Positions 7,756 to 39,859 of a stretch of 64,000 nucleotides of DNA are shown here, piece by piece; the first letter of the stretch is position 1, and every line of letters begins with the position of its first letter. Under the pieces are notes generated by a model. That model was given only the letters and a program-made list of their open reading frames with translations. It did no database searches and had not been told where the DNA came from. Source of the stretch: an uncultured Bdellovibrionales bacterium (GTDB lineage Bacteria; Bdellovibrionota_C; UBA2361; CAZKXU01); assembly GCA_964556665.1 (NCBI GenBank), contig CAZKXU010000001.1, positions 36,078-100,077 of the forward strand. Reading direction: 5' to 3'. The position numbers and the translations under genes are program-made.

Positions 7756-7812
7756 AAGCTGTAGATATATAGGTAAAATCTAGCTTTTAGCGGCATCAAA
7801 GTCAATTATTAG

Positions 7813-8610: not shown

Positions 8611-8636
8611 GTTATATAATTAAACTTATGCTAAAT

Positions 8637-8830
8637 GACAAAATAACGTACCGTTATTTTGTCTGTCGGCCTTTGACCATCCGTGGCCAAAGGCCTCCTC
8701 GAACGGCTTGAAACGGGTCCCCGAGCGCCCATTTCAAGCCGTTCTCCGAGCCTACGGCTCGTCCTGGCCATCCATGGCCAGGCTATAGCAAGTGACAGAA
8801 TAACGCTACGTTATTCTGTCACTTGCTATA
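8637..8830. repeat. Composite multi-hairpin element family B, copy 1 (about 195 bp, four consecutive perfect or near-perfect hairpins)
   Basis: GACAAAATAACGTACCGTTATTTTGTC; GGCCTTTG...CAAAGGCC; GAACGGCTTGAAA...TTTCAAGCCGTTC; CTATAGCAAGTGACAGAATAACGCTACGTTATTCTGTCACTTGCTATAG. Nearly identical at 63083-63277. Confidence 0.85.
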
Positions 8831-8887
8831 GTCTGCCCGTAGCCCGCAACATAGATCTTCTATGTTTTCCGTATTATTATCATATGT

Positions 8888-9316
8888 ATGTCACTTACAA
8901 TTAATAGATTGCTGACAATCCCCGACTCTGAGCTCAGCTTTACCTTCAGTCGTGCTTCTGGCGCAGGCGGGCAGAATGTAAATAAGGTTAATAGTCGTGC
9001 TACTCTTATTTGGAATGTTTTTAGTTCAAAGGCAGTTTCCTCTGAGCTGAAGGCCCGTTTTATCTCACTTTTTAGTAATCGGATTAACCAGGCAGGTGAA
9101 CTTCTTATCTCCTCTGACCGATTTCGCGAGCAGAGCAGAAACCGAGAGGATTGTATCTTACGACTTGAGAGTATGATACAAAAAGCGTTACATAAGCCTA
9201 AGTTGCGGCGCAAAACAAAGCCCAGTAATGCCTCACATGAACGGCGTATAACTGGCAAGAAGATCAGATCTAAGAAGAAAAATAACCGTGGAAGAATTAA
9301 ATTAGGACAGCTTTAA
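8888..9316 (+). CDS. arfB: Peptidyl-tRNA hydrolase ArfB (ribosome-rescue factor, release-factor-like)
   Basis: GGQ motif (SGAGGQNVNKVNS). About 140 aa with a basic C-terminal tail (KLRRKTKPSN...RSKKKNNRGR). Confidence 0.8.
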   Translation: MSLTINRLLTIPDSELSFTFSRASGAGGQNVNKVNSRATLIWNVFSSKAVSSELKARFISLFSNRINQAGELLISSDRFREQSRNREDCILRLESMIQKALHKPKLRRKTKPSNASHERRITGKKIRSKKKNNRGRIKLGQL

Positions 9317-9533
9317 TATGGAACACTTCAATCGAAAAGATGGGCCGTTTCAACTTTTTCAACGCAAGGTTGTTAATAAAAGTAATTACAACTTAGTTGA
9401 GTATATTAAAGTTATTCTTATCCTCTGTGTAGTGCGAATAGTTATGCTGATTTCTGGTGTGACTTTTATTGCTATTCCCTATCTAGATGGTGTATTACGA
9501 ATGCTCATATCAATGGTGATGTAGATAGTTAAA

Positions 9534-10238
9534 ATGCCCAAGGACGTAACATACAGCCGGATCGGATTTGAGGTGCAGGAGATGTTTGGCTCCATTGCAG
9601 CTGGGTATGATCGTGCCAATACGATTCTTAGCTTTGGTATACATCATCTTTGGCGTAAGGCGCTTATAGCTAGCCTTCCAAAGGGCCAAAAACTCGAGAT
9701 ATTAGATCTTTGCACGGGCACTGCAGATCTTATTCCACCTCTGGTCCCTCTAGCAAAAAGGTTGGTAGGAGCTGATTTCTCTCTGCCTATGTTAGTCCAA
9801 GCAGGGAAGAAGCTTAATCGGCTTGGTTTAAAAGCAGAATTAGTACAGGCAGACGCCCAAAATCTTCCATTCGCAGAGATGAGTTTCGATCTGATAACGG
9901 TGGCTTTCGGAGTGAGAAATTTTGAAAATTTAGAATTGGGATTAAAAGAGATGCTTCGCGTAATTAAGCCGGGCGCCACAATTAGAATATTAGAATTTGG
10001 CACACCTCCCGGCCTTTTTGGTTTAATCTACAAATTTTATTCCGATAAGTTGCTGCCACTTATAGGTGGATTAATAACAGGAAATCGTGCTGCTTATCGC
10101 TATCTGCAGAAGACCTCCTCTCATTTTCCGTATGCCGATCAGTTTGCTGCTAAGCTAAGCGAGGTTGGATATCAAGATGTAAGTTATAAGGCCTTAACCT
10201 TCGGTATTTGTTATCTTTATTCAGCTAGACGGATCTGA
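9534..10238 (+). CDS. ubiE: UbiE/MenG family demethylmenaquinone methyltransferase
   Basis: N-terminal FxxxAxxYDxxN (FGSIAAGYDRANTILS). SAM motif I ILDLCTGTADL. Confidence 0.75.
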   Translation: MPKDVTYSRIGFEVQEMFGSIAAGYDRANTILSFGIHHLWRKALIASLPKGQKLEILDLCTGTADLIPPLVPLAKRLVGADFSLPMLVQAGKKLNRLGLKAELVQADAQNLPFAEMSFDLITVAFGVRNFENLELGLKEMLRVIKPGATIRILEFGTPPGLFGLIYKFYSDKLLPLIGGLITGNRAAYRYLQKTSSHFPYADQFAAKLSEVGYQDVSYKALTFGICYLYSARRI

Positions 10239-10431
10239 ATCGTCTCTATTGATTAGGTCTAAGTGATATCCTAAAATATGTCCTTTAATAATGCTCAGTT
10301 GATGCTCTTTGCAGAATGTCGTTCTATCCTTGCCAGTAACGAATTCATTAATGACTTAAAAAATGGTAGAATAGTGGCCAGTTCTGATTCAACTGGAACC
10401 GTACTCATCCTTTATTTTTATTGAGAATTTT

Positions 10432-11082
10432 GTGCCATATACAAAAAAGTGGGTTATAGCTCTTACAGGTGCCAGTGGGATGCCGTATGCATTGCGGCTT
10501 ATTAAGAATCTTTTGAATGAGGAGATCGAACAGCATATAATAATCTCTGAAGCTGCTCATCAGGTATTGGCCGCAGAGCAGGGTATTAAAATATCTAGTG
10601 CCAAACTTAACAGTAAATCACTCCTAGGGGTGGAGAGTGATAAACTCCACTTTTATAACCCGCGTGACATAGGAGCGGCCCCTTCTTCGGGGTCGTTTTT
10701 ATTTGAGGGAATGGTAGTCGTGCCATGCAGCATGGGCACCTTGGGAGCGATTGCAACCGGAACACCGCGCAACCTTATTCATCGTGCCGCCGATGTGGCT
10801 CTCAAGGAGAATCGAAGGTTAATCCTTGTTCCTCGAGAAACTCCACTTTCGGCCATCCATCTTGAGAATATGCTTAAACTAAGCAGGATGCAGGTGCAGA
10901 TGGTTGCAGCGATGCCAGGCTTCTATGCTATGCCTGCTAATATAAATGATTTAGTTGACATGCTCGTTATGAAGATCATGGATTCAATGGGAATTCATAG
11001 AGAGCTGGTGCCGCGTTGGGGTGTGGAGAGTCCAGGCAGCGCCATTACTGAGACAAAAGTATTTGAGTTAAACCGTGGGTAA
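10432..11082 (+). CDS. ubiX: Flavin prenyltransferase UbiX (prenyl-FMN synthase)
   Basis: IALTGASG flavoprotein start, VVPCSMGTLG motif, about 210 aa. Confidence 0.85.
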   Translation: MPYTKKWVIALTGASGMPYALRLIKNLLNEEIEQHIIISEAAHQVLAAEQGIKISSAKLNSKSLLGVESDKLHFYNPRDIGAAPSSGSFLFEGMVVVPCSMGTLGAIATGTPRNLIHRAADVALKENRRLILVPRETPLSAIHLENMLKLSRMQVQMVAAMPGFYAMPANINDLVDMLVMKIMDSMGIHRELVPRWGVESPGSAITETKVFELNRG

Positions 11083-12097
11083 ATTAGCTCGTGTAGGAAT
11101 AACTGAAGGAAGGCTAGTACCAGTTGATGGATTGGCATGGGATCTCTCTGTGCAGAAGAGCGATAACTTTGTAGTAACAGCATTTGAACGGTTTGGTGTC
11201 TCAGAAACAGCAGCAGATATAATAGCATCCCGTCCATTAAGTGTAGAGCAGATCGAGTTTTTATTAGCAAAAGCCTCCTTCCCAATTTTGTTGAAATTAG
11301 TAGAGCTCCGAAAACAGAAGGTGGCGGGCATGAAGCCTACTCCCATCGTAGTTCTGCCGATTGGATCCTGGGTAGCTACATATGGGCTTAAGGCTTCGGT
11401 AAAGTTAGCAGTCGATTTTCTTTGCTCATTTGATAGTCCCTCTCTACAAGTAGTGTTAGAAGATCTGCAATCGATAGACTCAGCAATCCTTGAACTTGGA
11501 CTTTATGATGCCATTAGGGAGATACACGAAAGTAGAGCTGGTGTTGTCTTAGTAGGGCCTAGCGTTGAGGACATTCTTAAATGGATTGGTTGTATAGGTG
11601 TTAACCAAGATGAAGTATTTCACTTGGTTGAACTGGAAAGAGTGTTGTACTGTTTAAAGCAAGCTGGTGTTTCACGACTGCGCTATAGCTCTAATAAATA
11701 TTTACTAAAGCTGCTAAATGAAGTCGGTTTGTCAGCAAGTATATTGACCGATATAGGGGTTTATTCAACCCATACTAAGATGGCTGAGGAGCTGTATGCG
11801 TTAGGACAGCTCTCAGAGGATTGTCGTATCGATGTTTGGATGCCAGGTCTTATCGCACAAGATTTTAGCGCTGATTCTGCTACTGATCTGAAATTATTAC
11901 GTACTTTGGCTGTTGGGACTCTAGCATTGCCTCGTATTAGTTATCGACGTGCATCTAGCCGTTTTTTCTCTAGAGAGGGGCTAAGTTTCGCTAAATTCTG
12001 TGGCGCTAATGATTACGGATTTGGAGCAGTTGACGAATTAACCGAGCGTCGTTTAGGTGTGGCTCGCTTAGATCTACTTTCAAAGGTAATCGCATGA
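11075..12097 (+). CDS. MqnC/MqnE-fold paralogue lacking the radical SAM CxxxCxxC motif; function unknown
   Basis: C-terminal FCGANDYGFGAVDE parallels FGANDIDGT of the true MqnC/E at 5871-6977, and the middle region aligns by eye. No cluster-binding cysteines. Confidence 0.4.
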   Translation: MGKLARVGITEGRLVPVDGLAWDLSVQKSDNFVVTAFERFGVSETAADIIASRPLSVEQIEFLLAKASFPILLKLVELRKQKVAGMKPTPIVVLPIGSWVATYGLKASVKLAVDFLCSFDSPSLQVVLEDLQSIDSAILELGLYDAIREIHESRAGVVLVGPSVEDILKWIGCIGVNQDEVFHLVELERVLYCLKQAGVSRLRYSSNKYLLKLLNEVGLSASILTDIGVYSTHTKMAEELYALGQLSEDCRIDVWMPGLIAQDFSADSATDLKLLRTLAVGTLALPRISYRRASSRFFSREGLSFAKFCGANDYGFGAVDELTERRLGVARLDLLSKVIA

Positions 12098-13827
12098 GGA
12101 AGCTAAAGGTTGCCAATCTTAACTATATCGCCGCACTTCCTTTTAAAACTTTGGAGGGCATGCCTAACATTTGTTATGAGGAGAACTCTCCAACCGAGAA
12201 TGCACGTAAGTTGCATGAGGGTGAGGTGGACCTAGCACTAATATCAGTGGTTGAGTATGCAAATCATGGAGGATATGTAGGGCTTGATTTTGGGATTGCG
12301 GCAGTTGATAAATTAGATGCAGTGTCGCTCCTTTCCAACCATGAAATTAAAGACCTAACAACAATCTATCTCTATGAAGGCTCAAGTGCTTCGGCAGTAA
12401 TGTTAAAATTGTTGCTAGCAGAAAAGTATCTTACTACACCACGACTTGTGCGGGTAAACAGTAGGAATATTGTGGAATCACTAAAGCCTTACGAGGGCGT
12501 GCTGGTCATTCACGAAGTTGAACCTATTGTAAAAGAGAAATTTAAAGTTTGTGAGGATCTTGGGCGCATATGGTACGAGTTTACTGGCCTACCATTTGTC
12601 TATCTTGTCTGGGCAATGCGACCTGGCACACTCAGTATGGATCAGCACAGAAAACTCAATGATCTCTTTCATCGCTCTGTATGCGTTAGAGAGATTATCG
12701 CAGATGAGTTTGATAGCGAATTAGGACATGAAACTGGCGCAGCCTCTGCCTATGTTGGTCAAACAATCCATCACTACTTAGATGATACTCTACTGGGAGG
12801 ATTGGATGAGTTTTTTAAAAGATCGGCTAGTCTTAACCTACTGCCACAGACTCTCTATCGGAGTGCTACCTTTACACTTCTGAATCGCAAAGCATCGCCA
12901 AATGTGCAACATAAGCCGGTACAGTCATTATTTACAGAGGTGATAAAGGGTAGGCGTTTGAGTATTCGAGAAGCCGTGCGTATCGCTGAAGAGGCTACAA
13001 TGAGTGATTTGGCTTTGGCCACGCAGATGGTAACTCCAGCTCAGGTTAACAAGTCTCACTTCAATATGGTCTTGCCACTAAATGCAGCACAGTTACAGGA
13101 CGATCAACTGCTTTGGGAAAGACTTTTTCAAGCAGAAGTTAAAGGAGTTGATCATATTTTGATTAATCCTGGTGGTACGCTGCATGCTTCACTGTCTTGG
13201 TGGGAGGAGCGTCTTGCAACTATTAAGAAAAGATTTAATTTTTTGATTGAAGGATTTACCGTTAGTGAACTTTTGATGCTCTCTAAGTTGTCAAAAATGT
13301 CAGTTGGCACTCTAGCGGCTAAACTTAAACTTGCAGGGCTCGATCTGATATCTGGTACGGGTGGGGGGATGCTCTTTGATCGTATTGCTGCTAAGCACTG
13401 CAATTCGCAGATAAGCGCGGCTGAATGGATAGATACAATTCGATGGGTACATTCAGTAGGTGTCAAATCTAGCTGTTGCCTGACTATATCAAAGTTTGAA
13501 AGTTGGGAAGAGCGATTAATACATCTACAGAAACTCCGTAGTTTGCAGGATGAGAATCCTGGATTTAAATACTTTGGTGTGCAGATCTCAGAACAGTGGC
13601 CTGGACCTGTGGTCTCGGAAATAAAGTTAAGAACTCTGATGTTAGCCCGGCTCTTTTTAGATAATGTACCAACTTTTATAGAGTATGATTATACGCATGG
13701 TTTATTTGCTGCAACAGCGGGACTTTCCTTTGGGGCCAATCAGTTGCGAATCGACCCTACACTGCCAAATAGTAAGAGCATCTTTGCTGCTGTAGATGTA
13801 ATGCCTGGGTTGGAACTAGTTGGGTAG
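12094..13827 (+). CDS. MqnA-like (chorismate dehydratase, PBP-fold) domain fused to a second cysteine-less MqnC/MqnE-fold domain
   Basis: N-terminus KVANLNYIAALPF...DLALISVVEY resembles MqnA. C-terminal half (FKYFGVQI...SFGANQLRID) parallels the MqnC C-terminus. Overlaps the upstream stop by 4 bp. Confidence 0.45.
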   Translation: MRKLKVANLNYIAALPFKTLEGMPNICYEENSPTENARKLHEGEVDLALISVVEYANHGGYVGLDFGIAAVDKLDAVSLLSNHEIKDLTTIYLYEGSSASAVMLKLLLAEKYLTTPRLVRVNSRNIVESLKPYEGVLVIHEVEPIVKEKFKVCEDLGRIWYEFTGLPFVYLVWAMRPGTLSMDQHRKLNDLFHRSVCVREIIADEFDSELGHETGAASAYVGQTIHHYLDDTLLGGLDEFFKRSASLNLLPQTLYRSATFTLLNRKASPNVQHKPVQSLFTEVIKGRRLSIREAVRIAEEATMSDLALATQMVTPAQVNKSHFNMVLPLNAAQLQDDQLLWERLFQAEVKGVDHILINPGGTLHASLSWWEERLATIKKRFNFLIEGFTVSELLMLSKLSKMSVGTLAAKLKLAGLDLISGTGGGMLFDRIAAKHCNSQISAAEWIDTIRWVHSVGVKSSCCLTISKFESWEERLIHLQKLRSLQDENPGFKYFGVQISEQWPGPVVSEIKLRTLMLARLFLDNVPTFIEYDYTHGLFAATAGLSFGANQLRIDPTLPNSKSIFAAVDVMPGLELVG

Positions 13828-13833
13828 TTTCTG

Positions 13834-14706
13834 ATGAAAACGGTAATTCCGACTCTGCAGCTCTGGGGTAATGTAGTTAAGTTCTCACATACAATTTTTG
13901 CTTTACCATTTGCATTAGCGATGTTTGTAATTGTCGCTTCTCGTTATCCGGTTACTGTATTTCAACTTCTATGGATCTTGGCTGCGCTGGTTGCGGCACG
14001 TACAGCCGCAATGTCCTTTAACCGCCTCATTGATCGTAAGATTGATGAGCTAAATCCACGCACCAAAGACAGGGAGCTGCCTGCGGGGCGCATCGGAGTG
14101 CGAAGTGTTATGATATTGCTATTCTGCTCATCAATTCTATTTCTGTTTTCTTCGGGTGCCCTGGGTTTGCATTGTCTTATCTTGGCATTGCCAGTGTTAG
14201 CTGTCTTGTTTCTTTATTCCTGGTCAAAACGATTTACTTCTTATAGTCATCTGCTGCTTGGTCTTGCCTTAGCTCTCGCACCAGGAGGTGTTTGGTATGC
14301 GTTAACTGCTCAATTTTCGTATGAGCCTATAGTAATGATGTTAGCGGTGCTTTTCTGGGTAGCAGGCTTCGATGTGCTTTATGCGATACAGGATACTAAC
14401 TTTGACCGAGAGCATGGGCTGAACTCTATCCCAAGCCGTTTTGGGGTGAGCAAAGCACGCCTGTTAGCCTTTATATTTCATTGTATAGCAATCACACTGT
14501 TTAATATTCAGGGGGTATACACAGACCTAGGCTGGATATATTTTTTCGGATTAGCTCTTTTCTCCATTGTTTTACTTAGTCAGCATTGGATTATACAAAT
14601 GCGCGGTTTGGCAGAGATTAATCACCTATTTTTTAGCCGTAATGGCGCTGCTGCAGTTATCTATTTTGTAGCTGTACTTCTTGATGTCACACTACGTTCA
14701 GTTTAG
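13834..14706 (+). CDS. UbiA-family aromatic prenyltransferase (MqnP-like), 8-9 TM
   Basis: Polytopic membrane protein. NRLIDRKID and YAIQDTNFD motifs (first Asp-rich motif partly degenerate, N-R for N-D). Confidence 0.7.
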   Translation: MKTVIPTLQLWGNVVKFSHTIFALPFALAMFVIVASRYPVTVFQLLWILAALVAARTAAMSFNRLIDRKIDELNPRTKDRELPAGRIGVRSVMILLFCSSILFLFSSGALGLHCLILALPVLAVLFLYSWSKRFTSYSHLLLGLALALAPGGVWYALTAQFSYEPIVMMLAVLFWVAGFDVLYAIQDTNFDREHGLNSIPSRFGVSKARLLAFIFHCIAITLFNIQGVYTDLGWIYFFGLALFSIVLLSQHWIIQMRGLAEINHLFFSRNGAAAVIYFVAVLLDVTLRSV

Positions 14707-18717: not shown

Positions 18718-18809
18718 ACTGGGACCGCGGACATCCTGTCCGCTGTTGGGACAGCCTACAATTACGGCAAGTCTACTAATCTGCGGACAGGATGTTCGCG
18801 CTCCCAGTG
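18718..18809. repeat. Palindromic element family A, copy 3 (variant with GCGGACATCCTGTCCGC arms)
   Basis: TACTGGGACCGCGGAC...GTTCGCGCTCCCAGTG. Covers the 3' end of the pabB-like gene and creates three spurious ORFs. Confidence 0.7.
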
Positions 18810-20116
18810 CTTTTATACGCCTCCCAGATGCCGCGCGCCTTATGGAAGGTCTCTTCATACTCTGCTTCAGGCTCTGAATCGATTACCACTGCACCGCCTG
18901 TTTGAAATATAAAACTATCAGCTGAAAGGAGAGCTGTGCGAATAGCTACATTAAAATGTAGGTAATCTCCACCAAAAATGCCGATAGCCCCTGTATAAAC
19001 ACCTCTTCTTACTCCTTCAAGTTCAGTGATTATTTTCATTGCGGCGATCTTTGGACAACCTGTTACAGAGCCAGAGGGGAAAAGCGCCCTGACAATCTCT
19101 ACCAGGCCTACTTCACTAGGCAGTTTGGCTTCAATGTCAGCAAGGAGATGATGAAGATGAGGGAGCGTTTCTAGTCTAGGATAGCTTATAACTTTAACCG
19201 ATCCGGTTTTGGCAACGCGACCCAGATCGTTTCTAATAAGGTCAACTATCATAGCAAGCTCAGCCAGGTTCTTAGGACTTCGTAGTAGCTCGGCCGGATC
19301 TGAATCGAGAGCGGCGGTTCCTTTAATTGGAGAGGCGAGTATTGTAGCTCCTCTTTTCTCTATAAAAAGCTCAGGTGAAGCGCTTACGATTGAACTATGC
19401 TGTAACCTTATATAAGCGGCTCGTTGTGCCGGAGAGGATCTGCGTAGGTTTAGGTAAAAATCTTCCGGACGACTACATGCTGGAAGTTTAAATCTCTGGC
19501 TAAGATTCACCTGATATACATTCCCGTCTTTAATCTCATCTTTGATCTTATTTACAGCGTCTAGATAGCTCTGATGTGTAAAATTTGAAAATTGCTCAAG
19601 CTCCCGCTTCATCTGCGTAAAATTCAAAGTTGAAGGAGAGGCTGTAACAGAGCTGGTGGCGCTAGATGAGAGCAGTTCGATATTATTCTCCATTTTCCAA
19701 AGCGGAGTGAAATTACCTTGATAAGAGATGCACCACTTGATGCAGCAATCCGATGATTTATCTATTTCAAATATTGTTGAGTAGAGAAAGAATGAGAGAA
19801 GCGGGTGCTCCTCCTTAGCAGAAGCTAGCTTAGGAAGCTTCTCAATAAAATGGCTGAATTCGTATGAGATGAATCCGGCACTTAATGGCGGTGTAGATGT
19901 AGTACTGGTAATACTCTCTAATGTTCGTATGATAGACCAGGGATCGTTGCAGGCATATGAAATCTCGATCTTATGTACCGGATCAAGAAAAATAAAGCTG
20001 CGATCAGCTGTATCTATCTGAGCAAATCCCTCTCTCTGCCCGTATCGCAGTAGCATCGTTTCAAGAAGATGACTTCCGGCAGCGGCTATTATCCCTTTTC
20101 TGATATCTGTAATCAC
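18776..20116 (-). CDS. Chorismate-binding enzyme, aminodeoxychorismate/anthranilate synthase component I (PabB/TrpE-like)
   Basis: C-terminal GGAVVIDSEPEAEYEETFHKA and PIKGT motifs. The 3' end runs into palindromic repeat A3. Confidence 0.7.
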   Translation of the reverse strand: MITDIRKGIIAAAGSHLLETMLLRYGQREGFAQIDTADRSFIFLDPVHKIEISYACNDPWSIIRTLESITSTTSTPPLSAGFISYEFSHFIEKLPKLASAKEEHPLLSFFLYSTIFEIDKSSDCCIKWCISYQGNFTPLWKMENNIELLSSSATSSVTASPSTLNFTQMKRELEQFSNFTHQSYLDAVNKIKDEIKDGNVYQVNLSQRFKLPACSRPEDFYLNLRRSSPAQRAAYIRLQHSSIVSASPELFIEKRGATILASPIKGTAALDSDPAELLRSPKNLAELAMIVDLIRNDLGRVAKTGSVKVISYPRLETLPHLHHLLADIEAKLPSEVGLVEIVRALFPSGSVTGCPKIAAMKIITELEGVRRGVYTGAIGIFGGDYLHFNVAIRTALLSADSFIFQTGGAVVIDSEPEAEYEETFHKARGIWEAYKSTGSANILSAD

Positions 20117-20697
20117 AAGCAGTGCGCCAAAAAGTTGTGGATTATTCTATCTCCACTCTCTGTTAAAAATGATTCAGGATGAAACTGTACCCCCCAGATC
20201 GGTTTATGACGATGACGAAGAGCCATCACCTCGCCGTCAACAGTATCGCTTGCTAGGATCTGTAAGTCTTCCGGTATCTCGTCAATCGCTAATGAATGAT
20301 ACCGTGCTACTGTCAGCGGAGAAGGAAGGCCTGCGAAAATATCGGAAGCAGTATGATGTATCAGGCTGCATTTACCGTGTAGCGGTTTTTTTGCCCGCCG
20401 TAGTCTTGCTCCAAAATGTTCGCCGATCAGCTGATGCCCAAGGCAGACACCTAATATAGGCACCTGAATATCCGTTGATTGAAGCACATCCTTACAAATA
20501 CCAGAATCTTTCGGAGTGCCAGGACCAGGGGAGAAAATTATTGCTGCCGGTGCAATACTCCGTATCTCGTTAAGATGTAAGCTGTCATTCCTATGTACTA
20601 AAACCTGAGTTTCTAGAGCAACCAGCTGCTTAAACAGCTGTGCTAAGTTAAAGGTGAATGAGTCATAGTTATCGATAATTAGAAGGGAAGCACTCAT
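20113..20697 (-). CDS. Class I glutamine amidotransferase component II (PabA/TrpG-like)
   Basis: LGVCLGHQ nucleophile-Cys motif, C-terminal HPES. 4-bp overlap with the component I gene. Confidence 0.8.
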   Translation of the reverse strand: MSASLLIIDNYDSFTFNLAQLFKQLVALETQVLVHRNDSLHLNEIRSIAPAAIIFSPGPGTPKDSGICKDVLQSTDIQVPILGVCLGHQLIGEHFGARLRRAKKPLHGKCSLIHHTASDIFAGLPSPLTVARYHSLAIDEIPEDLQILASDTVDGEVMALRHRHKPIWGVQFHPESFLTESGDRIIHNFLAHCL

Positions 20698-20884
20698 TAG
20701 GGTCGTAGAGTAACATTATGGGTGGTGGTAATAAATATGAGTGAAATTGTCTTGTAAATACAGCCTCTTGCAGTCTTACATGACGGGGTTGTTTCAACTT
20801 GGATAGCAGTATACAATCCTCTCCTAAACTTTTTATTGTTTGCTGAACTGAGTCCAGTCTGAATCGATTCAGATCAGGAATCTT

Positions 20885-21946
20885 ATGTTTTCATTTCGAT
20901 TCAAGCATGTCTGCTTAGAGGCTTACGCCGTTAATCTTCCACCTAATGAACTATCTTCTGATACGATTGAAGATAGACTCGCCGCCGTTTATCAGAGGCT
21001 ATCTATCCCGCTTGGGACTCTGGAAAAACTAAGTGGTATTAAAACTAGATATTTTTGGCCGAATGGTACTCTTCCCAGCCAGCCCGCAACGGAGGTATCA
21101 AAGCTTGCGCTTGAGAAAATTGGATTCGATCGGAGTCATATCGGTGCTATAATTAACACCTCTGTTACTCGTGATTATTTTGAGCCAGCTACTGCCTGTA
21201 TAGTTCATGGGAACCTAGGGCTAGCGGAGACAACAGTTGCCTTTGATGTGACTAATGCTTGTATCGGATTCTCTAACGGAATCTTTCTGCTTGCCAATAT
21301 GATTGAGTCCGGCATGATCAAGGCCGGAATAATCGTATCTGCAGAGGTGTTGAACCGTTTTCTTGATTCAAGCCTTGAGTATGTGCAGCATAGTAAAGAC
21401 GTAAGTCGTGATAATCTCCTAAAACTTCTGCCTGCCTTTACATTAGGTAGCGGATCGGTCGCGTGGGTTTTGGCGCATGAAAGCATCGCCACACAGAGGC
21501 ATAGAATTGTTGGTGGCGTAGCGCGTTCAGCTACGCAGTTTAATGATCTTTGTAATGGGAACAATGACTACTGCGTCACGCAGCCAGGCGAGATTATGCC
21601 GGTAATGCTGACAGAGTCACAGAAGCTGATCTCTTCTGCATCCAAGCTTGGTGCAAGAGTGTGGCCAGAGGCGAGCCAGGTTTTAGGATGGAATAGTGAA
21701 GCGATTAATCACATCTTTTGCCACCAGGTTGGTAAGCAAGTCAATGAGGCTTTTTTTGCTGAGCAAGGGTTAGACTACAGCAAGGAGTATACAATTTATC
21801 GAAAGTACGGAAATTTAGTATCTGCAGCGTTACCAACGGCGGTTGCTTTAGGCATAGACGACAAGCCAGTGCGTAGCGGTGAAAAACTGTTATTAACAGC
21901 TTATGGTAGTGGTCTAAATACTGTCTTTACCGGTATTGAGTGGTAG
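20885..21946 (+). CDS. oleA: FabH-like thiolase, OleA-type (head-to-head Claisen condensing enzyme)
   Basis: KAS III fold (NACIGF active-site Cys region). First gene of a thiolase / hydrolase-ligase / dehydrogenase set. Confidence 0.6.
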   Translation: MFSFRFKHVCLEAYAVNLPPNELSSDTIEDRLAAVYQRLSIPLGTLEKLSGIKTRYFWPNGTLPSQPATEVSKLALEKIGFDRSHIGAIINTSVTRDYFEPATACIVHGNLGLAETTVAFDVTNACIGFSNGIFLLANMIESGMIKAGIIVSAEVLNRFLDSSLEYVQHSKDVSRDNLLKLLPAFTLGSGSVAWVLAHESIATQRHRIVGGVARSATQFNDLCNGNNDYCVTQPGEIMPVMLTESQKLISSASKLGARVWPEASQVLGWNSEAINHIFCHQVGKQVNEAFFAEQGLDYSKEYTIYRKYGNLVSAALPTAVALGIDDKPVRSGEKLLLTAYGSGLNTVFTGIEW

Positions 21947-24519
21947 CCTCTAAATCGATGTTCTCCACCTTTGCAATATCAAAACTTCTTCCCTTTAAGT
22001 CTAATTACCTGGAAGTAGCTGGGTATAAGATGCATTATCTTGATGAGGGCAGCGGTCCTATAGTTGTAGCTCTTCACGGCAATCCGACCTGGTGTTTTTA
22101 TTATAGAAATCTAATTACAGAGCTGCGCCAGCATTTTCGCATTATAGTTCCTGATTATATCGGCTGCGGACTCTCAGACCATCCTGAGGATAAACACTTC
22201 AGAGCAATTCATAGAATCGAGCAGCTGGATGAATTCCTTTCAAAATTAGGAATTAATAAGCTTTCATTAATAATGCACGATTGGGGCGGACCGATCGGGA
22301 CAGGCTGGGCAGTACGAAATATTTCTAAAGTTGAACGCCTAGTCTTCTTAAATACAACACTGACGGAAACAGATGCATTACCGCGCGTTATCAAAATGGC
22401 CGCCAAGGGTTGGATCGGGAGATACATCACAAAATATAGTATGCGTTTTCTTAAGCTTACTACGGATTTTGGGGTGGTGCACAAGCTTTCGAAAGAAATA
22501 AAGCAGGGATATTACTATCCGTATCGCAGTTCGAAACGTCGTACGGCTATATGTGATTTCGTTTCTGATATCCCATTTGACAGCAGCTATCCAAGCTACG
22601 GTGATCTTATGGATATGGCGGGTCGTCTAGCGGATCTTAGATCGGTTCCTGTGAAAATAATTTGGGGATTAAAAGATCCATGTTTTCATAGGGAGATGCT
22701 TAACAAAGTTGCAAAGCACTTTCCGCAAGCCGAGGTGGTTGAAATCCCAGAGGCATCGCATCTCGTATTAGAAGATGCACCGCAAATTGTCTGCCCAGCT
22801 GTTAAATCATTTTTACTTGATCCAGCACCCCGCAGCGGAACGGCAGTCTCAAACATGGCACCTTCTTATGAATTACAGCCTAATCGATTTTTTAAATCAT
22901 TCAGCGAACATGCACAAAAATCACCCTCTGCAGATGCAGCCATAGTACCTTGGTTTTTTGGAGAGATGGTAACTTATAACCATATTAGTTTTCGTGATTT
23001 ACAACTCTTAGTAAATAAGTATCAGCGCGGTTTGGCAGAGTTAGGTTTGCAGCGCGGGGACAAAGTCATAATGTTAGTGTCACCTGGAGTTGATTTTCTA
23101 GCACTAAGCTATGCTGTGATGGGTCGCGGAGCGATCCCTGTTTTTCTTGATCCTGGAATGGGGAAGGAGAATCTCTTAAACTCTATTGAACATGTAAAAC
23201 CTGCTGCTTTCATAGGATCTCCAAAGGCGCAGGTGCTGCGTTGGCTTAAAAGATCTTTGTTTGCTGGCATCAAGTTTCATCTTACGGCCAGCGAGTGGTT
23301 CTATACTGGCGGGCCGACTCTCTCCTATCTTAAAAAATTCTCATCATTCCCACCTGATCCGGTACAGGGGACAGGAGTGGCTCTGATTGCATTTACCTCA
23401 GGTGCGACCGGAGTGCCAAAAGGTGTGATATATACAGATGAAATGGTAGATGCACAGCTTCAGATCTTTAAAGATTCTTTTGGAATACAGCCTTTAAACA
23501 AAGATCTGCCACTATTGCCGATTTTTTCCTTATTTAACCTGGCATTGGGTGTGTGTAGTGTTTTCCCGCCTGTAGATCCATCAAAGCCACTAGAATTATC
23601 TCCATCCAAAATAGTTAAAATTATAAATGACCTTAATGTTGATTACTCATTTGGTTCACCTACGCTTTGGAGAAAAATAGGGGAGTACTGTTTGCGCAGC
23701 ACTGATAAGCTTCCTTCAATCCGTACTATATTAATGGCAGGTGCACCTGTGCCTCCAGAGACGGTAGTGTTAGTTAAAAACTATCTGCCTAACGGAGAGG
23801 TGTATACTCCTTATGGAGCTACGGAGGCTTTGCCGGTAACATTTGTTTCAGGTGAGGATATTTTAACACATCAAAGTGTGCCGGCGCTTACTGGGGAGTT
23901 AGGAACATTCGTTGGTCGAGCTGTTTCTGGCCTTGAGGTGAAAATTATCTCTGAATCTGATGAGAGATTAAGTGAAACTGTATCTCTGCCTCCTCTGCAG
24001 ATAGGGGAGATAGTTGTACGCGGGAAAAATGTTAGTTCAGAATATCTAGATCTGCCGAGATCAAATGAGCTTTCTAAAATACCTACCTCTTCAGGTCTAT
24101 GGCACCGCATGGGTGATATGGGCTATCTCGATAAGATCGGCAACCTGTATTTTTGCGGACGCAAGAGTCATATAGTGAAGTGGCAAGGAAAAGTATTTTA
24201 TAGTATTCCAGTCGAGCGTGTTTTTAATCAGCATCCCAAAGTTAGACGTTCTGCTTTAATTGCACTTGCTCGATCCTCTGGTATTGGAATTGCGATTGAA
24301 CCGTATCCGCAACACATGCCATCAAGCACAGATGAGCGTGATAAATTCATAGAGGAGCTTTTACAGTTAGGCGCAGCGAATCCTCTTACTGCCTCTTTAG
24401 CTAACATTTTCTTCTTTCCAAGTTTCCCGGTAGACAGTCGACATAACGCTAAAATCTTTAGGGATAAGCTGGGAGAGATGGCATCAAGGGAGGGATATGA
24501 ACATGAGCGCGCAGCATAA
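21940..24519 (+). CDS. oleBC: Fused alpha/beta-hydrolase (OleB-like) plus AMP-dependent synthetase/ligase (OleC-like, beta-lactone synthetase family)
   Basis: N-terminal HGNPTWCFYYR haloalkane-dehalogenase-like hydrolase motif. AMP-binding motif FTSGATGVPKGV further on. 859 aa. Confidence 0.65.
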   Translation: MVASKSMFSTFAISKLLPFKSNYLEVAGYKMHYLDEGSGPIVVALHGNPTWCFYYRNLITELRQHFRIIVPDYIGCGLSDHPEDKHFRAIHRIEQLDEFLSKLGINKLSLIMHDWGGPIGTGWAVRNISKVERLVFLNTTLTETDALPRVIKMAAKGWIGRYITKYSMRFLKLTTDFGVVHKLSKEIKQGYYYPYRSSKRRTAICDFVSDIPFDSSYPSYGDLMDMAGRLADLRSVPVKIIWGLKDPCFHREMLNKVAKHFPQAEVVEIPEASHLVLEDAPQIVCPAVKSFLLDPAPRSGTAVSNMAPSYELQPNRFFKSFSEHAQKSPSADAAIVPWFFGEMVTYNHISFRDLQLLVNKYQRGLAELGLQRGDKVIMLVSPGVDFLALSYAVMGRGAIPVFLDPGMGKENLLNSIEHVKPAAFIGSPKAQVLRWLKRSLFAGIKFHLTASEWFYTGGPTLSYLKKFSSFPPDPVQGTGVALIAFTSGATGVPKGVIYTDEMVDAQLQIFKDSFGIQPLNKDLPLLPIFSLFNLALGVCSVFPPVDPSKPLELSPSKIVKIINDLNVDYSFGSPTLWRKIGEYCLRSTDKLPSIRTILMAGAPVPPETVVLVKNYLPNGEVYTPYGATEALPVTFVSGEDILTHQSVPALTGELGTFVGRAVSGLEVKIISESDERLSETVSLPPLQIGEIVVRGKNVSSEYLDLPRSNELSKIPTSSGLWHRMGDMGYLDKIGNLYFCGRKSHIVKWQGKVFYSIPVERVFNQHPKVRRSALIALARSSGIGIAIEPYPQHMPSSTDERDKFIEELLQLGAANPLTASLANIFFFPSFPVDSRHNAKIFRDKLGEMASREGYEHERAA

Positions 24520-25528
24520 CCGTTTTATAGTTACAGGAGGCGGCGGATTTGTTGGTAAGGCCTTGGCCTTAAGATTGCGTTCCTTAGGTGCTGAAGTTAT
24601 CTCAGTGTCACGCGGTAATTATCCTGAGCTTACAGCTCTTGGTATTAAACATCAGCGTGTTGATCTGACCCAGGATTTTATGGGCCTCGTCCAGGTCTTT
24701 AAAGGAGCGGACGCTGTTTTTCATGTCGCTAGTAAGACTGATATGTGGGGGCCTTATGAGGATTTTTTTAAAAGTAATGTACTAGCAACTCAGAATATGA
24801 TCGAGGCCTGCAAACTCGCAGATGTGAATAAGCTTATCTATACCAGTAGTCCTAGTGTTGTTGCCGGCGGGGAGGATCTGAATGGTGTGAATGAATCTTA
24901 TCCATATCCAAAAGAACATTTGGCATATTACCCGATGACAAAGGCTCGTGCTGAGCAGGAGGTGTTGGCCGCTAATTCCAATGATTTATATACCATCGCA
25001 TTAAGGCCGCATCTGATATTTGGTCCAGGAGACAATCATCTAGTTCCTGAAATATTGGCACGTGCTAAAGCCGGCAAGCTGGTTCGTGTAGGTAGTCGTG
25101 AAATTATGACTGACCTTACTTTTATAGACGACTGTGTTGAAGCACATCTGCTAGCCTATAAAGCCCTGGATCGCGCCAGTGCACGAGGGCGCGCGTATTT
25201 TATAAGCCAAGGTGAGCCTGTATCTTTGTGGGGATGGATTAATAAAGTCTTAGAGCTCAATCAGCTTTCTCCGGTAACTAGAAGCATACCTCAATGGCTT
25301 GCTGAGACTCTCTCTGGTCCAAGCGAGTTGCTTGGAAAGATTGCAGGGAGTCGTCCATTACTTACAAAGTTTCTTGTATGTGAGATGTCAACAAATCATT
25401 ATTTTGATATATCTGCTGCTAAAAAAGAGCTTGGATATCAACCCTCTTGTAATATAGCAGAGGCGCTCCATCGAACCTTTGGCAAGAAAACGAGCGGTGC
25501 AGTTGTGCTAGAGCAAGCTGCTACTTAA
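24497..25528 (+). CDS. oleD: NAD(P)-dependent 3beta-HSD/epimerase family reductase (OleD-like)
   Basis: TGGGGFVGKAL Rossmann motif, YxxxK region. Overlaps the oleBC stop. Confidence 0.6.
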   Translation: MNMSAQHNRFIVTGGGGFVGKALALRLRSLGAEVISVSRGNYPELTALGIKHQRVDLTQDFMGLVQVFKGADAVFHVASKTDMWGPYEDFFKSNVLATQNMIEACKLADVNKLIYTSSPSVVAGGEDLNGVNESYPYPKEHLAYYPMTKARAEQEVLAANSNDLYTIALRPHLIFGPGDNHLVPEILARAKAGKLVRVGSREIMTDLTFIDDCVEAHLLAYKALDRASARGRAYFISQGEPVSLWGWINKVLELNQLSPVTRSIPQWLAETLSGPSELLGKIAGSRPLLTKFLVCEMSTNHYFDISAAKKELGYQPSCNIAEALHRTFGKKTSGAVVLEQAAT

Positions 25529-25604
25529 AAAACAGTGTGCATACTTATCATACGCGTGCAGTCTAATTGTTAAAGATCGTCATGCTCACCTGCACACTTT
25601 ATCT

Positions 25605-26642
25605 TTGCCAAATCTTGCCAATTATACTTTCTTAGATGAAGATAATATTATGACTGGTTCTACGCTTGCCGATATCAAAAAAATTCTAGGTATATTTCTG
25701 TTTCTCCTATCTCTTGGCCCAATTAATTTACTAGCTGATTCACCAGCCAAATCTATCTGGATTGCAATTCCAAAATTTGACTACTCCCAGCATCCTGAAG
25801 ACATTTACTTCCCAATCGCTATGTTCGATGGCTTAAAGTGGCATGCTCCTTGGCCACGTCCCTTTGATGAAAAGATTATTGAGGCTTCTGAGATGGATCT
25901 AAAAAATATTCCTGAAGCGTGGACTGGAAAATCTAAGCTTCCTGGAACTTGGAATCTTAGTTATGTTGATGGCTCGAAGCAGGTATCAATCATTACGAAA
26001 ATAAAAAAAACTAATTGTAGCTGCCAGGATGCTTACGGGATTCAGTTTAATAAGAGGAGTTCTAGCCGAGCATGTCTAGCTGTTACAGGAGAAGTAAGTG
26101 CTTATTGCGCACAAGAATTGAAAACAACAAGCTCAACCAAGGAATTTGATAATAGATTCCAAAGCTTGGTTGCGGCAGAGAGTACCTTCAAAAATAAGTT
26201 GTCAAAACTTGAATCAACTACAATAAACAAAGTCTTCTTAGTCGGTCCTGAAAGGAATTTTGCATTCGCCTCTTTTTTGAAAATGTTTGCTAAGAACCAG
26301 AGCGCACTTGATAGCTGTTACGAAGGCACCAATTGCAGTCCCCCATGTCTGGGTTTTGCTTATATGAGCGGCTGGTATTTAAATGGAAAGAAGATTCAGG
26401 CATTGAATGAGGATAGTGATGTTGTAGATTGTAGTAAGGACTCTGCGGGTTATAGCTATTCACCTGATCCATTAGGTATGCTTACTTTTGGTAAGCACTC
26501 CTACCTAATTGAACAGTCTAATGGATACGAGGCTCATGGGGTAAACATTTATGAGGTACTTGGAAATAAGATGGTCCAAGTCTTTTCTACGGATACAGAC
26601 CCAGAAACTGGTAAGCCTCTTTATGCATACTGTGGGTGTTAA
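25605..26642 (+). CDS. Secreted cysteine-rich protein, unknown function
   Basis: Signal peptide (ILGIFLFLLSLGPINLLA) and many Cys. True start probably the internal Met near 25650. Confidence 0.45.
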   Translation: MPNLANYTFLDEDNIMTGSTLADIKKILGIFLFLLSLGPINLLADSPAKSIWIAIPKFDYSQHPEDIYFPIAMFDGLKWHAPWPRPFDEKIIEASEMDLKNIPEAWTGKSKLPGTWNLSYVDGSKQVSIITKIKKTNCSCQDAYGIQFNKRSSSRACLAVTGEVSAYCAQELKTTSSTKEFDNRFQSLVAAESTFKNKLSKLESTTINKVFLVGPERNFAFASFLKMFAKNQSALDSCYEGTNCSPPCLGFAYMSGWYLNGKKIQALNEDSDVVDCSKDSAGYSYSPDPLGMLTFGKHSYLIEQSNGYEAHGVNIYEVLGNKMVQVFSTDTDPETGKPLYAYCGC

Positions 26643-26746
26643 CAATCATTCATTAGTGAGTCAGGAAGAATGGGTGCTAAGCACCATAGAAGTCAGGTAG
26701 GTTCGTAGCCAACCTTTGGCTAAACCTAATAACTGTGTATGAGGAA

Positions 26747-26935
26747 TTATGCTACTATGTTCAATCGGGTACCTACACCGGGTGCGGGTGTATTGTCTAA
26801 ACCTTCAATTAGCAGTTCTGCGATATCACCTTTTTGATCGAGCGCTTTTTTAAATACTGCAACTTCAGCTTTCTGGTTATACTCTTCTAGTTTTTTGGAA
26901 GAAATTGCCGATACGGACAAGATTTCGTCTGCCAT
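26747..26935 (-). CDS. YjfB-like small protein (putative motility protein family)
   Basis: SVSAISS...AEVAVFKKALDQKGDIAELLIEGL resembles the YjfB signature. Confidence 0.4.
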   Translation of the reverse strand: MADEILSVSAISSKKLEEYNQKAEVAVFKKALDQKGDIAELLIEGLDNTPAPGVGTRLNIVA

Positions 26936-27430
26936 TGAAAACTCCTTTTACAATTTGCACCACCACAAATTGGCAACGCCCGGGGATCCATTCCCTAGTA
27001 AAAGTATCGGAGTCGACGCTTAGTTGCATAAGGCGTATTTATAGTTCAAGGGCATTTATACGAGTATAATCGAGTGCGCTCAAATTTATAGGAAACCATA
27101 GTGATTTTAGTATGTTATACGCCAATGATAATAAACAGATCCATTTCAGTCGAATTTATGACTTATAGTATGGTGATTGGTAAAGAGAGACTCGCACCTT
27201 CAATACGAATAACTTGAAGATTGTATTTTAAAACGATACCATCCTCCGCTTGTATTACTATGTTCTATAAAAATTAGTTTGGGCAGTAATTATGAGTAGA
27301 AGGGTAGGTTATCGTTCCTCGGGAGATCCTCACCGGTCTGCCCTGGAACGGTAGCGGTCAGATTGAAGGTTTTATCTAGCCGCAAACCGTTTGGCGATCC
27401 ATTCATGTTGCTTCTTCTGAGGAGCTTCAA

Positions 27431-29011
27431 TTGAAGAAAAGAGGCGGTTCAGGTTCGAAAGAGGGAATCGAGGTCATAGACAGGCCTGATGGAAAAAAGG
27501 AGGTCAAGGTTAGGCAGGTCGATCTCGCTGCTGCTGAAAACAAAAAGGAAGCAGTGGCAGCGAATCGGAGTGCTTGCGAGGGGCTTTCAGGCCTTGCACT
27601 CAAGGGCAAGGTCGTTCTCTTGAGCTTCGTCGGAGAGAACGGTTCCCGAGTAGCGCCAAGCGACACTATGCGTGACTTCGCGATCGGGAAGCTGCGCGGA
27701 AACTGTGCAGGGCTCTTCAAGCCAAACCTGCAAAGGGGTGGCTGGGAGGCGCTCTCGAAGAAGCAGGAGACGCAGTTTGTCCCGTTCGAGGAGGGCGCTG
27801 CCCCTGTGCTGGAGGTATTCGAGGAGGTTCCCTCGGAACCAGAAGCCTACGTAAAGCGGCTCTACATCGGAAGTGCTGATGCTTCCGGTGTGCTGACCAT
27901 TAGCCTTGATCTTGCTCCTCATTCCGCACTGATAGCGGATCTGGAGCGCGAGGCTGCGGAGAAGCGTGAGAGGGTCGCTGGTAAGGTGGTGGTTCTCGAG
28001 GCGCGCGCTGGTGGTGAACTGAAGAGCGATCACTGGAAGGCAGTTTTGCGTGGATTTGGCGCTGTACTTAAGGCAAAGCTGGTTCTGCGCAAGAGCTCTC
28101 TCGGTGATGGAAACTACGTTGTGCTCTTCAGCACCGATGAACGCTGGAACTTGGATAGCCGCAAGATCCTTGCCGAGCTCTTGGCACCGGTCGAATCGGC
28201 GAATCCGCAAGAGACGTCAGCGGCGGCTGAGCCGGCGGCAGAGGAAGTGGTGGCTGAAGAAGCTCCCGTGGCCGAAGCTGCAGAGCCAGAGGTGGTAGCC
28301 ACGGATGACGGCGCGCAAGCGCCGCCAGATGTTGCTCCACCCATGGATGAAGTTCCTGCAGTTGTAGAGACATCTGCGGCCGAAGCCACTCCTGCGCCGA
28401 CGGTGAAGGAAGCAGACGACGGTGCGCAGGTTCCGCCAGATGCACCTGCACAAGTGGTTGAAGTTCCGGCAGTTGAGGAGGTGCCTGGTACACAGGTGCC
28501 AAATGCTGCTGAGCTTGTGGTGGCTGAAGAACCACCACTTGGGCTTGAGGAGCTTTTGCCTGATGCGTTGCCGGCTGAAGAAGTCGCGCTGCAGGCTCCT
28601 ACTATGCCCGATGCTGCTGTTACTGCTCCCGATGCCAGCGTGGCAGAAGCTGCAGTGACACCCCCGAGTGGAGATGGTGATGCGGTCCAGGCGGCCGATA
28701 TTCAAGCAGCTCCCGAGGCTCCACCGGCAGAGCCAGAAGTGGTGGGCACAGCAGTGCTAGTTGAAGCACCGGACGTGGTGGCGCAGGCTCCGGCGGTTGA
28801 ACTGCTAGAGGAGATGTCTCCTGAGACAGGAAGAGCTGCGTCACAGATCGAGGCATTGCCTGCGGATCCAGCCCCTAGTGACGGTGCTCCACCGGTAGCT
28901 TCACTTGCACCTGCTTCCAGATCGGTACCGCCACATAACGGGCTGAAATGGTGGCAGATCATTCCCAAGCTACGTCGCCGCATGGCAAAAAACCTTGGGT
29001 TGCGAGAGTGA
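27431..29011 (+). CDS. GC-rich Pro/Ala/Glu-rich repeat protein, unknown function; TTG start
   Basis: Long ORF in a visibly GC-rich island. Acidic PAPE-type low-complexity C-terminal half with an approximately 117-bp tandem repeat (DDGAQ.PPD...EVPAV). Confidence 0.55.
   Translation: MKKRGGSGSKEGIEVIDRPDGKKEVKVRQVDLAAAENKKEAVAANRSACEGLSGLALKGKVVLLSFVGENGSRVAPSDTMRDFAIGKLRGNCAGLFKPNLQRGGWEALSKKQETQFVPFEEGAAPVLEVFEEVPSEPEAYVKRLYIGSADASGVLTISLDLAPHSALIADLEREAAEKRERVAGKVVVLEARAGGELKSDHWKAVLRGFGAVLKAKLVLRKSSLGDGNYVVLFSTDERWNLDSRKILAELLAPVESANPQETSAAAEPAAEEVVAEEAPVAEAAEPEVVATDDGAQAPPDVAPPMDEVPAVVETSAAEATPAPTVKEADDGAQVPPDAPAQVVEVPAVEEVPGTQVPNAAELVVAEEPPLGLEELLPDALPAEEVALQAPTMPDAAVTAPDASVAEAAVTPPSGDGDAVQAADIQAAPEAPPAEPEVVGTAVLVEAPDVVAQAPAVELLEEMSPETGRAASQIEALPADPAPSDGAPPVASLAPASRSVPPHNGLKWWQIIPKLRRRMAKNLGLRE
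28303..28536 (+). repeat. Approximately 117-bp in-frame tandem repeat inside the GC-rich gene
   Basis: GATGACGGCGCGCAAGCGCCGCCAGAT... recurs as GACGACGGTGCGCAGGTTCCGCCAGAT... Protein level DDGAQAPPD / DDGAQVPPD. Confidence 0.6.
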
Positions 29012-36765: not shown

Positions 36766-37010
36766 AAATATATAAGACTAATAAAAATACTGAATTACAA
36801 ACTATTCTTTAGGAGGTGTAACATCCTCTTTCGATCGTTCATTTAGCTTACCTGAAGCAACAAATCTTACACTATTATAATCTTCTGATCCAATGGTTTC
36901 ACACGCCAATTGCGTTTCTAGCTGTTGTTGTAACCCCGTTAAATTTTTACCGACTAAATATATACTAGCTATCTTCGGGTAGTCACTATCTAAGAGTGGA
37001 TGGTACTAAG

Positions 37011-37119
37011 TCACTGGGACAGTTGCTGAATGCAACCTTGCGATGCTGGGACCGGGTATCTTGCCCGCAAACAAATTAGCTGCCTCTACGCTGCAGGCAA
37101 GATGACCGCTGCCCCAGGG
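37011..37119. repeat. Palindromic element family A, diverged copy 4
   Basis: CACTGGGACA...GCTGGGACCGGGTATCTTGCCCGC...GCAGGCAAGATGACCGCTGCCCCAGGGG, followed by TTTTTATT. Intergenic between the large protein gene and the M23 gene. Confidence 0.55.
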
Positions 37120-37145
37120 GCTTTTTATTGAATATACGATTAACT

Positions 37146-38643: not shown

Positions 38644-38661
38644 AATAACTCCAAAAATATG

Positions 38662-39195: not shown

Positions 39196-39212
39196 AAAAT
39201 TCGATCTACTAA

Positions 39213-39856: not shown

Positions 39857-39859
39857 AAT

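Follow-up and report, generated by a model that had tools for sequence, protein, structure and literature searches.

A predicted oleA-oleBC-oleD operon encoding a fused OleB-OleC protein in an uncultured Bdellovibrionota-like bacterium

The DNA analysed here is a stretch of 64,000 nt (the window, meaning the whole stretch at its full length), and on its plus strand, at 20885-25528, lies a cluster of three genes of the ole type, for long-chain olefin biosynthesis. The open reading frame (ORF) map places three co-directional, tightly packed ORFs at 20885-21946 (353 aa), 21940-24519 (859 aa from a GTG codon) and 24497-25528 (343 aa from the first ATG), all of them free of frameshifts and internal stops, and full-length gene calls for 100% identical proteins exist in the public record. 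Taken together, the evidence given below makes it highly probable that these genes form a functional oleA-oleBC-oleD operon, carried by an uncultured Bdellovibrionota/Oligoflexia-like bacterium. In this arrangement, oleA (20885..21946, +) encodes an OleA-type thiolase of 353 aa, and the middle gene encodes a predicted OleB domain (21958..22833, +; aa 1-292 of an 853-aa product), an inter-domain linker (22834..22872, +; aa 293-305) and a predicted OleC domain of the ANL superfamily of adenylate-forming enzymes (22873..24519, +; aa 306-853 and the stop codon). The third gene, oleD (24503..25528, +), encodes a protein of 341 aa belonging to the extended short-chain dehydrogenase/reductase (SDR) or 3-beta-HSD family. 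Residues of OleA and OleD are numbered on their own proteins, and those of OleB and OleC on the 853-aa product.

Two of the gene starts differ from those of the ORF map. In its sole database copy (P0001, 100% identical), the middle protein has 853 aa, which places the start of oleBC at ATG 21958, 11 nt past the oleA stop codon (21944-21946), with the GTG at 21940 as an alternative; no clear Shine-Dalgarno sequence was found at either of the two oleBC starts. A strong Shine-Dalgarno sequence, AAGGGAGGG, precedes oleD and ends 2 nt before the ATG at 24497 and 8 nt before the ATG at 24503, a spacing that makes the latter start (341 aa) the more likely one. Whichever ATG is used, oleD and the 3' end of oleBC (stop codon at 24517-24519) overlap by 17-23 nt. 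The initial annotation, which had described three co-directional overlapping genes, was right about their direction, their positions and the overlap of oleBC with oleD, but the overlap of oleA with oleBC gives way to the 11-nt gap. The motifs quoted in it (HGNPTW, TSGATGVPKG and TGGGGFVGKAL) are all present in the translated ORFs. For comparison, one genome per species was scanned for related loci, and the best 80 of 287 stretches encoding a relative were fetched.

The three proteins have matches far beyond chance in Pfam and NCBIfam searches (E-values of 1e-14 to 1e-153). Pfam alone cannot separate an ole cluster from a chance neighbourhood of housekeeping lipid metabolism genes, in which the three products would be a FabH, a FadD-type synthetase fused to an esterase and a sugar/sterol-type SDR, and the public annotations of the homologues ('3-oxoacyl-ACP synthase III', 'fatty acid CoA ligase family protein' and 'alpha/beta fold hydrolase') are in line with such a neighbourhood. 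The family models, however, point elsewhere, beginning with the first protein, which has the Pfam domains ACP_syn_III and ACP_syn_III_C. On NCBIfam NF006720/PRK09258 (cutoff 285) this thiolase reaches 343.5 bits, compared with 95.9 bits on TIGR00747 fabH (cutoff 292), and FabH models overall give it 96-110 bits against cutoffs of 249-292. Control sequences show that NF006720 separates OleA from FabH, as the Xanthomonas campestris OleA (rebuilt from the PDB alignment) scores 475 bits on it, whereas the Escherichia coli FabH (taken from NC_000913.3) scores 110 bits on it and 503 bits on TIGR00747. Among all PDB chains, the X. campestris OleA entries (3ROW) are matched with 203 bits and the best FabH with 77 bits, the full-length identity to the X. 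campestris OleA being 35% and that to FabH, along part of the sequence, 26%.

The catalytic residues of the thiolase agree with this placement. E100, C126, H280 and N310 align with Glu117, Cys143, His285 and Asn315 of X. campestris OleA and are invariant in 62 syntenic homologues. Of these, E100 corresponds to the OleA-specific base (Glu117 of X. campestris), a position at which the E. coli FabH has Phe. Relative to the X. campestris protein, the window OleA has an 11-residue insertion at aa 233-243. A search pattern for OleA, EPxx[AS]x(14,18)DxxNACL, was published in a survey of ole distribution (Surger et al. 2020, PMC7158056), and the window thiolase, which reads EPATA-x16-DVTNACI, departs from it only at the final position, where Leu is replaced by Ile. 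The strict NACL pattern is matched by 16 of the 62 syntenic OleAs, and in the fused loci, 45 of 49 OleAs have Ile, Met or Val at the last pattern position or do not match the pattern at all. These counts show that the pattern is too narrow, and the mismatch is not evidence against membership in OleA.

The middle protein combines Abhydrolase_1 (residues 40-281, E-value 4.7e-25) with AMP-binding (residues 321-703) in one ORF, which bears out the hydrolase-ligase fusion proposed initially, with a length of 853 aa from the ATG or 859 aa from the GTG. Its ligase domain scores 511 bits on PRK09274 (cutoff 478) and aligns over the full length of the olefin beta-lactone synthetase models NF045785 (389 bits) and NF045786 (369 bits), whereas the best generic fatty-acyl-CoA ligase model gives 159 bits. 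The motifs of the ANL superfamily are complete, with the P-loop TSGATGVPKG at 480-489, YGATE at 619-623, GDMG at 719-722, R735 and the C-terminal K832, all of them invariant in 60 homologues. The OleC domain is accordingly described here as a predicted ANL-superfamily ATP-dependent beta-lactone synthetase. A housekeeping FabH clade for the thiolase and a fatty acyl-CoA synthetase clade for the ligase were two outcomes that had been named beforehand as speaking against an ole cluster, and both comparisons came out on the side of the Ole enzymes.

As for the third protein, the Pfam search assigns it to 3Beta_HSD/Epimerase (E-value of 2.3e-47 for 3Beta_HSD), and the models for 2-alkyl-3-oxoalkanoate reductase (OleD) rank above all others, with 333 bits for NF042423 and 305 bits for NF042422, followed by HpnA with 124 bits; the call of a 3beta-HSD-family NAD(P) reductase is thereby confirmed. 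Its Rossmann motif TGGGGFVG at 11-18 and its Ser/Tyr/Lys triad, made up of S115 and Y143-x3-K147, do not vary in 69 homologues. This protein is predicted to be an NAD(P)H-dependent reductase converting 2-alkyl-3-ketoalkanoate to 2-alkyl-3-hydroxyalkanoate.

The best named profile of each protein is the Ole one, by a 2-3-fold margin in bits, and oleA lies directly upstream of oleB/C and oleD directly downstream in nearly all of the 80 loci (those with enough flanking sequence), so that the enzyme set and order of OleABCD, as first read from the window, are upheld. A strict three-gene synteny of this kind across phyla would be unexpected for unrelated housekeeping genes, and a chance neighbourhood of FabH, FadD-type and SDR genes is regarded as extremely unlikely. 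The catalytic residues of the four activities do not vary among 60-69 homologues with 35-60% identity, apart from one Asp-to-Val exception, and this constancy indicates purifying selection on catalysis.

Some related loci depart from this layout. In L034, L040, L042, L052 and L061 (and in L047, which is partial), oleA is inverted and is found after oleD, on the other strand, and not ahead of oleBC; the titles of these six loci (Bordetella parapertussis, Burkholderiaceae, beta proteobacterium, Opitutae) seem at odds with their close similarity to Pirellulales loci. Three further loci, L011, L045 and L064, have no adjacent oleD despite enough downstream flank, the first two being oleA-oleBC and the third having oleA, oleB and oleC as separate genes, and their OleD is presumably encoded elsewhere in the genome. 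What follows oleA-oleBC is a trypsin-PDZ protease and mutL in L011, and a glycosyltransferase in L045. No accessory gene family is conserved beside the ole genes in the 80 loci. Other ORF families near ole that appeared to be conserved were discarded, being either local neighbours or shadow ORFs antisense to the ole genes.

The hydrolase domain of the middle protein decides where the pathway would end. Its best PDB match is DhmeA (8ooh/8ckp, 125 bits), a member of subfamily III of the haloalkane dehalogenases (HLD-III), and its pentad N42, D108, W109, D240 and H268 aligns with N63, D129, W130, D258 and H286 of DhmeA; the same pentad is intact in 59 of 60 fused homologues, the remaining one having the Asp-to-Val change. 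The haloalkane dehalogenase models of NCBIfam match the domain below their cutoffs. DhmeA was the first HLD-III structure, and the OleB of X. campestris has been placed in the same subfamily (PMC10503415). On these grounds, the domain is a predicted HLD-III-like alpha/beta hydrolase acting as a beta-lactone decarboxylase. Other members of the subfamily (DhmeA 8OOH/8CKP, DmbC and DrbA) have the same N-D-W-D-H pentad (PMC10503415); however, they are stand-alone enzymes that are weakly active as dehalogenases and have no known natural substrate, whereas the window domain is fused to OleC within an ole operon.

The joining of the two domains was examined in an AlphaFold2 (AF2) model of the fusion, built on a 44-sequence alignment, which has a mean predicted local distance difference test score (pLDDT) of 87.9 and a predicted TM-score (pTM) of 0.87. 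It comprises two well-folded modules, the OleB module being modelled with confidence, while in Foldseek searches of the PDB the C-terminal module has the ANL fold, with a TM-score of up to 0.86 (target-normalised). Residues 293-305 are the sole internal segment with a pLDDT below 50 and are non-conserved in the same alignment; they are taken as a putative disordered, flexible linker of about 13 residues joining OleB and OleC. Searches of the PDB returned no structure of OleC, OleD or a fused OleBC.

The order of steps OleA, OleD, OleC and OleB has been described (PMC7064751; PMC7158056), and by homology with the systems of X. campestris, Shewanella and Micrococcus the following route is proposed for the window cluster. 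OleA would join two long-chain acyl-CoAs by a head-to-head, non-decarboxylative Claisen condensation to a 2-alkyl-3-ketoalkanoic acid, the keto group of which OleD would reduce at the expense of NAD(P)H, yielding the 3-hydroxy acid. The OleC domain would then adenylate the carboxylate with ATP and close it onto the 3-hydroxyl, forming a cis-beta-lactone. In the OleB domain, tethered to OleC by the linker, the Asp nucleophile would attack the lactone and CO2 would leave, so that a long-chain internal cis-alkene is formed, which would partition into the membrane. Presumably, the fusion allows the reactive, heat-labile lactone to be passed directly from OleC to OleB, and the chain length and unsaturation of the product would be set by the acyl-CoA pool of the host.

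OleA, OleC and OleD are common to the olefin and beta-lactone pathways (PMC7064751), and no sequence feature that was tested tells an OleB decarboxylase from other HLD-III enzymes, the pentad being subfamily-wide; the pathway could thus stop at the beta-lactone, or at the beta-hydroxy or beta-keto acid, to give a natural product or surfactant, with the hydrolase domain acting as a hydrolase or dehalogenase. The lipstatin LstABCD and nocardiolactone Nlt oleACD clusters are of this kind, sharing with the window enzymes of the OleA, OleC and OleD types and the reactions that lead to the beta-lactone (PMC7064751). However, they have no oleB homologue and end at the lactone, whereas here OleB is covalently fused to OleC and its pentad is intact. 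It is the presence of OleB that tells a cluster for olefins from an oleACD cluster for beta-lactone natural products (PMC7064751), and in the window all four activities occur together, OleB included. Tailoring genes (P450, glycosyltransferase, non-ribosomal peptide synthetase/formyltransferase) are not conserved beside the cluster in the 80 loci either, and its neighbours in the window are pabAB and an unrelated ORF for a secreted Cys-rich protein. A route ending before the olefin is therefore considered unlikely, and the olefin operon is retained as the reading of the cluster.

Several points weigh against this reading. The ligase domain does not reach the OleC equivalog cutoffs (389 bits against 850 and 369 against 900), nor does the reductase reach that of OleD (333 and 305 bits against 580), and the one Ole enzyme whose structure has been characterised shares a modest 35% identity with the thiolase. 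NCBIfam has no OleB-specific profile, and the OleB assignment is a prediction drawn from HLD-III similarity, the fusion and the gene context; the olefin product, too, is a prediction, for this organism and for the whole clade of fused proteins. A scan of 20000-27500 for sigma-70 promoter and terminator consensus gave no site at the operon ends, and the counts of promoter and terminator sites in the region were fewer than, or no more than, those in shuffled sequences. With respect to the first of these points, the names of the OleC and OleD models (OlefBLtnSynShew, OlefBLtnSynXan and oxyalk_red_Shew) point to models built around Shewanella and Xanthomonas, which suggests that the sub-cutoff scores reflect phylogenetic distance and not a different function.

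The lack of consensus promoter and terminator sites at the operon ends, together with the origin of the genome, a metagenome-assembled genome (MAG) known from its sequence alone, would also suit a cluster that is intact yet silent or decaying, with no product made. That scan, however, was a simple one, limited to sigma-70 consensus sites, and decay is at odds with the uninterrupted ORFs, with the retention of all catalytic residues and with the full-length identical proteins in the public record; a silent or decaying cluster is very unlikely. The presumed promoter region of the ole operon, inferred from the gene layout alone, is the divergent intergenic region of 187 bp at 20698..20884, between oleA and the pabA homologue (20113-20697, minus strand), next to which, on the same side and also divergent to oleA, lies the pabB homologue (18776-20116, minus strand).

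Compared with the biochemical and structural reference, OleABCD of X. campestris (OleA PDB entries 3ROW, 3S21 and 4KU5), the window cluster has the same four activities in the order A-B-C-D, a 35% identical OleA and an OleB domain that is HLD-III-like, as is XcOleB. OleB and OleC are, however, separate polypeptides in X. campestris and one chain in the window, and the two extra genes of the X. campestris region, PF13784 and PF03692 (PMC7064751), have no counterpart conserved beside loci of the window type. An identical three-gene oleA-oleBC-oleD layout is found in the clusters of Micrococcus luteus/Micrococcales and Mobilicoccus (PMC7064751; PMC7158056). The Micrococcales clusters belong to high-GC Actinobacteria, whereas the window has a GC content of 43% and is Bdellovibrionota-like. 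For M. luteus, the three genes are reportedly Mlut_13230-13250, as is said to have been described by Beller et al. in 2010. Granulosicoccus antarcticus (Gammaproteobacteria) has, like the window, an oleBC fusion outside the Actinobacteria, although in a different lineage. Both the pathway and the three-gene fused layout were thus already known, and the cluster is an ordinary intact case in a new host lineage.

The initial annotation had linked the fusion to some actinobacterial clusters. The fusion is indeed known there, but it is no actinobacterial peculiarity: OleB and OleC are encoded in one ORF in 63 of 78 related loci and by separate adjacent genes in the other 15, in a sample that was ranked by tblastn with the fused protein as query and is therefore biased towards in-frame cases. 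The genomes of the fused loci are labelled as Bdellovibrionota, Planctomycetota/Pirellulales, Chlamydiota/Chlamydiae and others, although some MAG labels (e.g., 'Bordetella parapertussis' and 'Kuenenia') look unreliable. A 2020 paper reports the OleBC fusion only for Actinobacteria and Granulosicoccus, and Bdellovibrionota, Planctomycetota/Pirellulales and Chlamydiota are not mentioned in it as having the fusion. Fused OleBC is, then, far more widespread outside the Actinobacteria than the literature states, which is a mildly new point.

The loci with separate genes suggest how the fusion could have come about. In the 15 distant loci concerned (within L062-L079; 35-41% identity; among them Desulfobulbales and a Bacteriovoracaceae MAG), oleC is in the same frame as oleB without exception (15/15), mostly with an ATG a few codons past the oleB stop codon (for example, at 6841-6843 in L062 and 6844-6846 in L065). 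One lost stop codon would thus be enough to produce the fusion in those 15 loci, and this looks like a one-mutation route to fusion rather than recoding. Programmed read-through or selenocysteine insertion at the oleB stop was rejected, since TGA, TAA and TAG all occur among the 15 loci and the next ATG is only a few codons away in most of them and lies further downstream in the others, as in ordinary neighbouring genes.

Among representatives at 50% identity, full-length fusions make up 15 of the best 150 matches, most of the others being OleC proteins that stand alone. When the OleC domains are placed on a crude neighbour-joining tree, fused proteins turn up in at least four places, a scatter that suggests repeated fusion or fission; this tree has no support values and no named actinobacterial sequence by which to tell which fused group is the actinobacterial one. 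For the fusion in the window, an origin separate from that of the actinobacterial fusion is possible. Here it is tentatively proposed, as a possibility rated slightly below even, that the window protein and those with Bdellovibrionota, Planctomycetota/Pirellulales and Chlamydiota labels form a large, undescribed clade of fused OleBC that would have originated in an independent fusion of adjacent, in-frame oleB and oleC by stop codon loss, spread between phyla and been missed by surveys based on NACL, as the clade has NACI. The requirement for NACL in the published pattern may be the reason why the clade escaped notice.

Regarding the host, full-length relatives of the fused protein at 52-60% identity number in the hundreds, the named ones coming from MAGs of Bdellovibrionota, Oligoflexia or 'Deltaproteobacteria', and the UvrB encoded in the window has at most 72-73% identity to anything, again to Oligoflexia/Bdellovibrionota MAGs. 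Judging from the names of these UvrB and OleBC homologues and from the locus titles, the host is assigned to an uncultured, fairly isolated Bdellovibrionota/Oligoflexia-like lineage with 43% GC, and is no actinobacterium. An active OleA is known from another member of the Oligoflexia, Halobacteriovorax marinus (PMC7064751; PMC7158056). The GC content of the ole cluster, 0.43-0.45, equals the window mean, and the pabAB-ole arrangement is common to two related MAG loci (L007 and L008), from which the cluster looks resident rather than recently imported. On the same two grounds, a recent horizontal import by way of the nearby conjugative element is unsupported. The window has no tRNA genes, and thus none that would mark an integration site for that element, and an Rfam scan of the whole window gave nothing at the gathering thresholds.

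The element in question is a conjugative-transfer (type IV secretion) gene set at about 37000-51700, which includes genes for a TraC-like ATPase (39860-42619), a TrbI-like protein (43558-44892) and a TraG/TraD coupling-protein-like product (49524-51650), with several ORFs without a family match interspersed. Directly downstream of oleD, at 25605-26642, lies an ORF for a Cys-rich protein of 345 aa (from a TTG codon) with a hydrophobic N-terminal segment; it has no match in Pfam or NCBIfam and no counterpart near the ole genes in the 80 loci, and it is probably outside the ole pathway. It is followed at 27431-29011 by an ORF for an acidic, low-complexity protein rich in Pro, Glu, Ala and Val, without a family match, where the local GC content rises to 0.60, compared with 0.43 for the window, and many shadow ORFs occur on the opposite strand.

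Other parts of the window carry genes for further pathways. At 5871-14706, genes of the futalosine route to menaquinone are clustered, encoding an MqnC-like radical SAM protein, a UbiE methyltransferase, a UbiX-type flavoprotein and a UbiA prenyltransferase, as well as a 577-aa protein with an N-terminal VitK2_biosynth domain. The region 52313-56395 includes the gene for a class II lanthipeptide synthetase LanM (DUF4135 and LANC_like, 1076 aa, minus strand), facing a divergent ORF at 55760-56395. The product of this ORF has a Cys/Ser/Thr-rich tail, ...SQDTSHQTCTSCCSACGTCTNCR, and weak similarity to nitrile-hydratase-alpha or 'Frankia peptide' leaders, and is probably an NHLP-type lanthipeptide precursor. 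A gene at 61882-62727, encoding an enzyme of the MbnB/TglH/ChrH family (E-value 1e-99) that modifies precursors of ribosomally synthesised and post-translationally modified peptides (RiPPs), has small ORFs adjoining it and suggests a second RiPP locus.

For the organism, the cluster predicts long-chain olefins in the membrane of this uncultured Bdellovibrionota-like bacterium. Fused OleBC is the majority state among the related non-actinobacterial loci, which contradicts the published picture of a fusion restricted to Actinobacteria and one gammaproteobacterium. The narrow OleA motif matters for surveys of hydrocarbon biosynthesis and for the use of environmental long-chain alkenes as biomarkers, and a naturally tethered OleB-OleC is relevant to the choice of enzymes in biofuel and beta-lactone engineering. 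If the proposed undescribed clade of fused proteins is real, abundant uncultured lineages of fresh water, predatory and host-associated ones among them, would commonly have long-chain olefins as membrane lipids.

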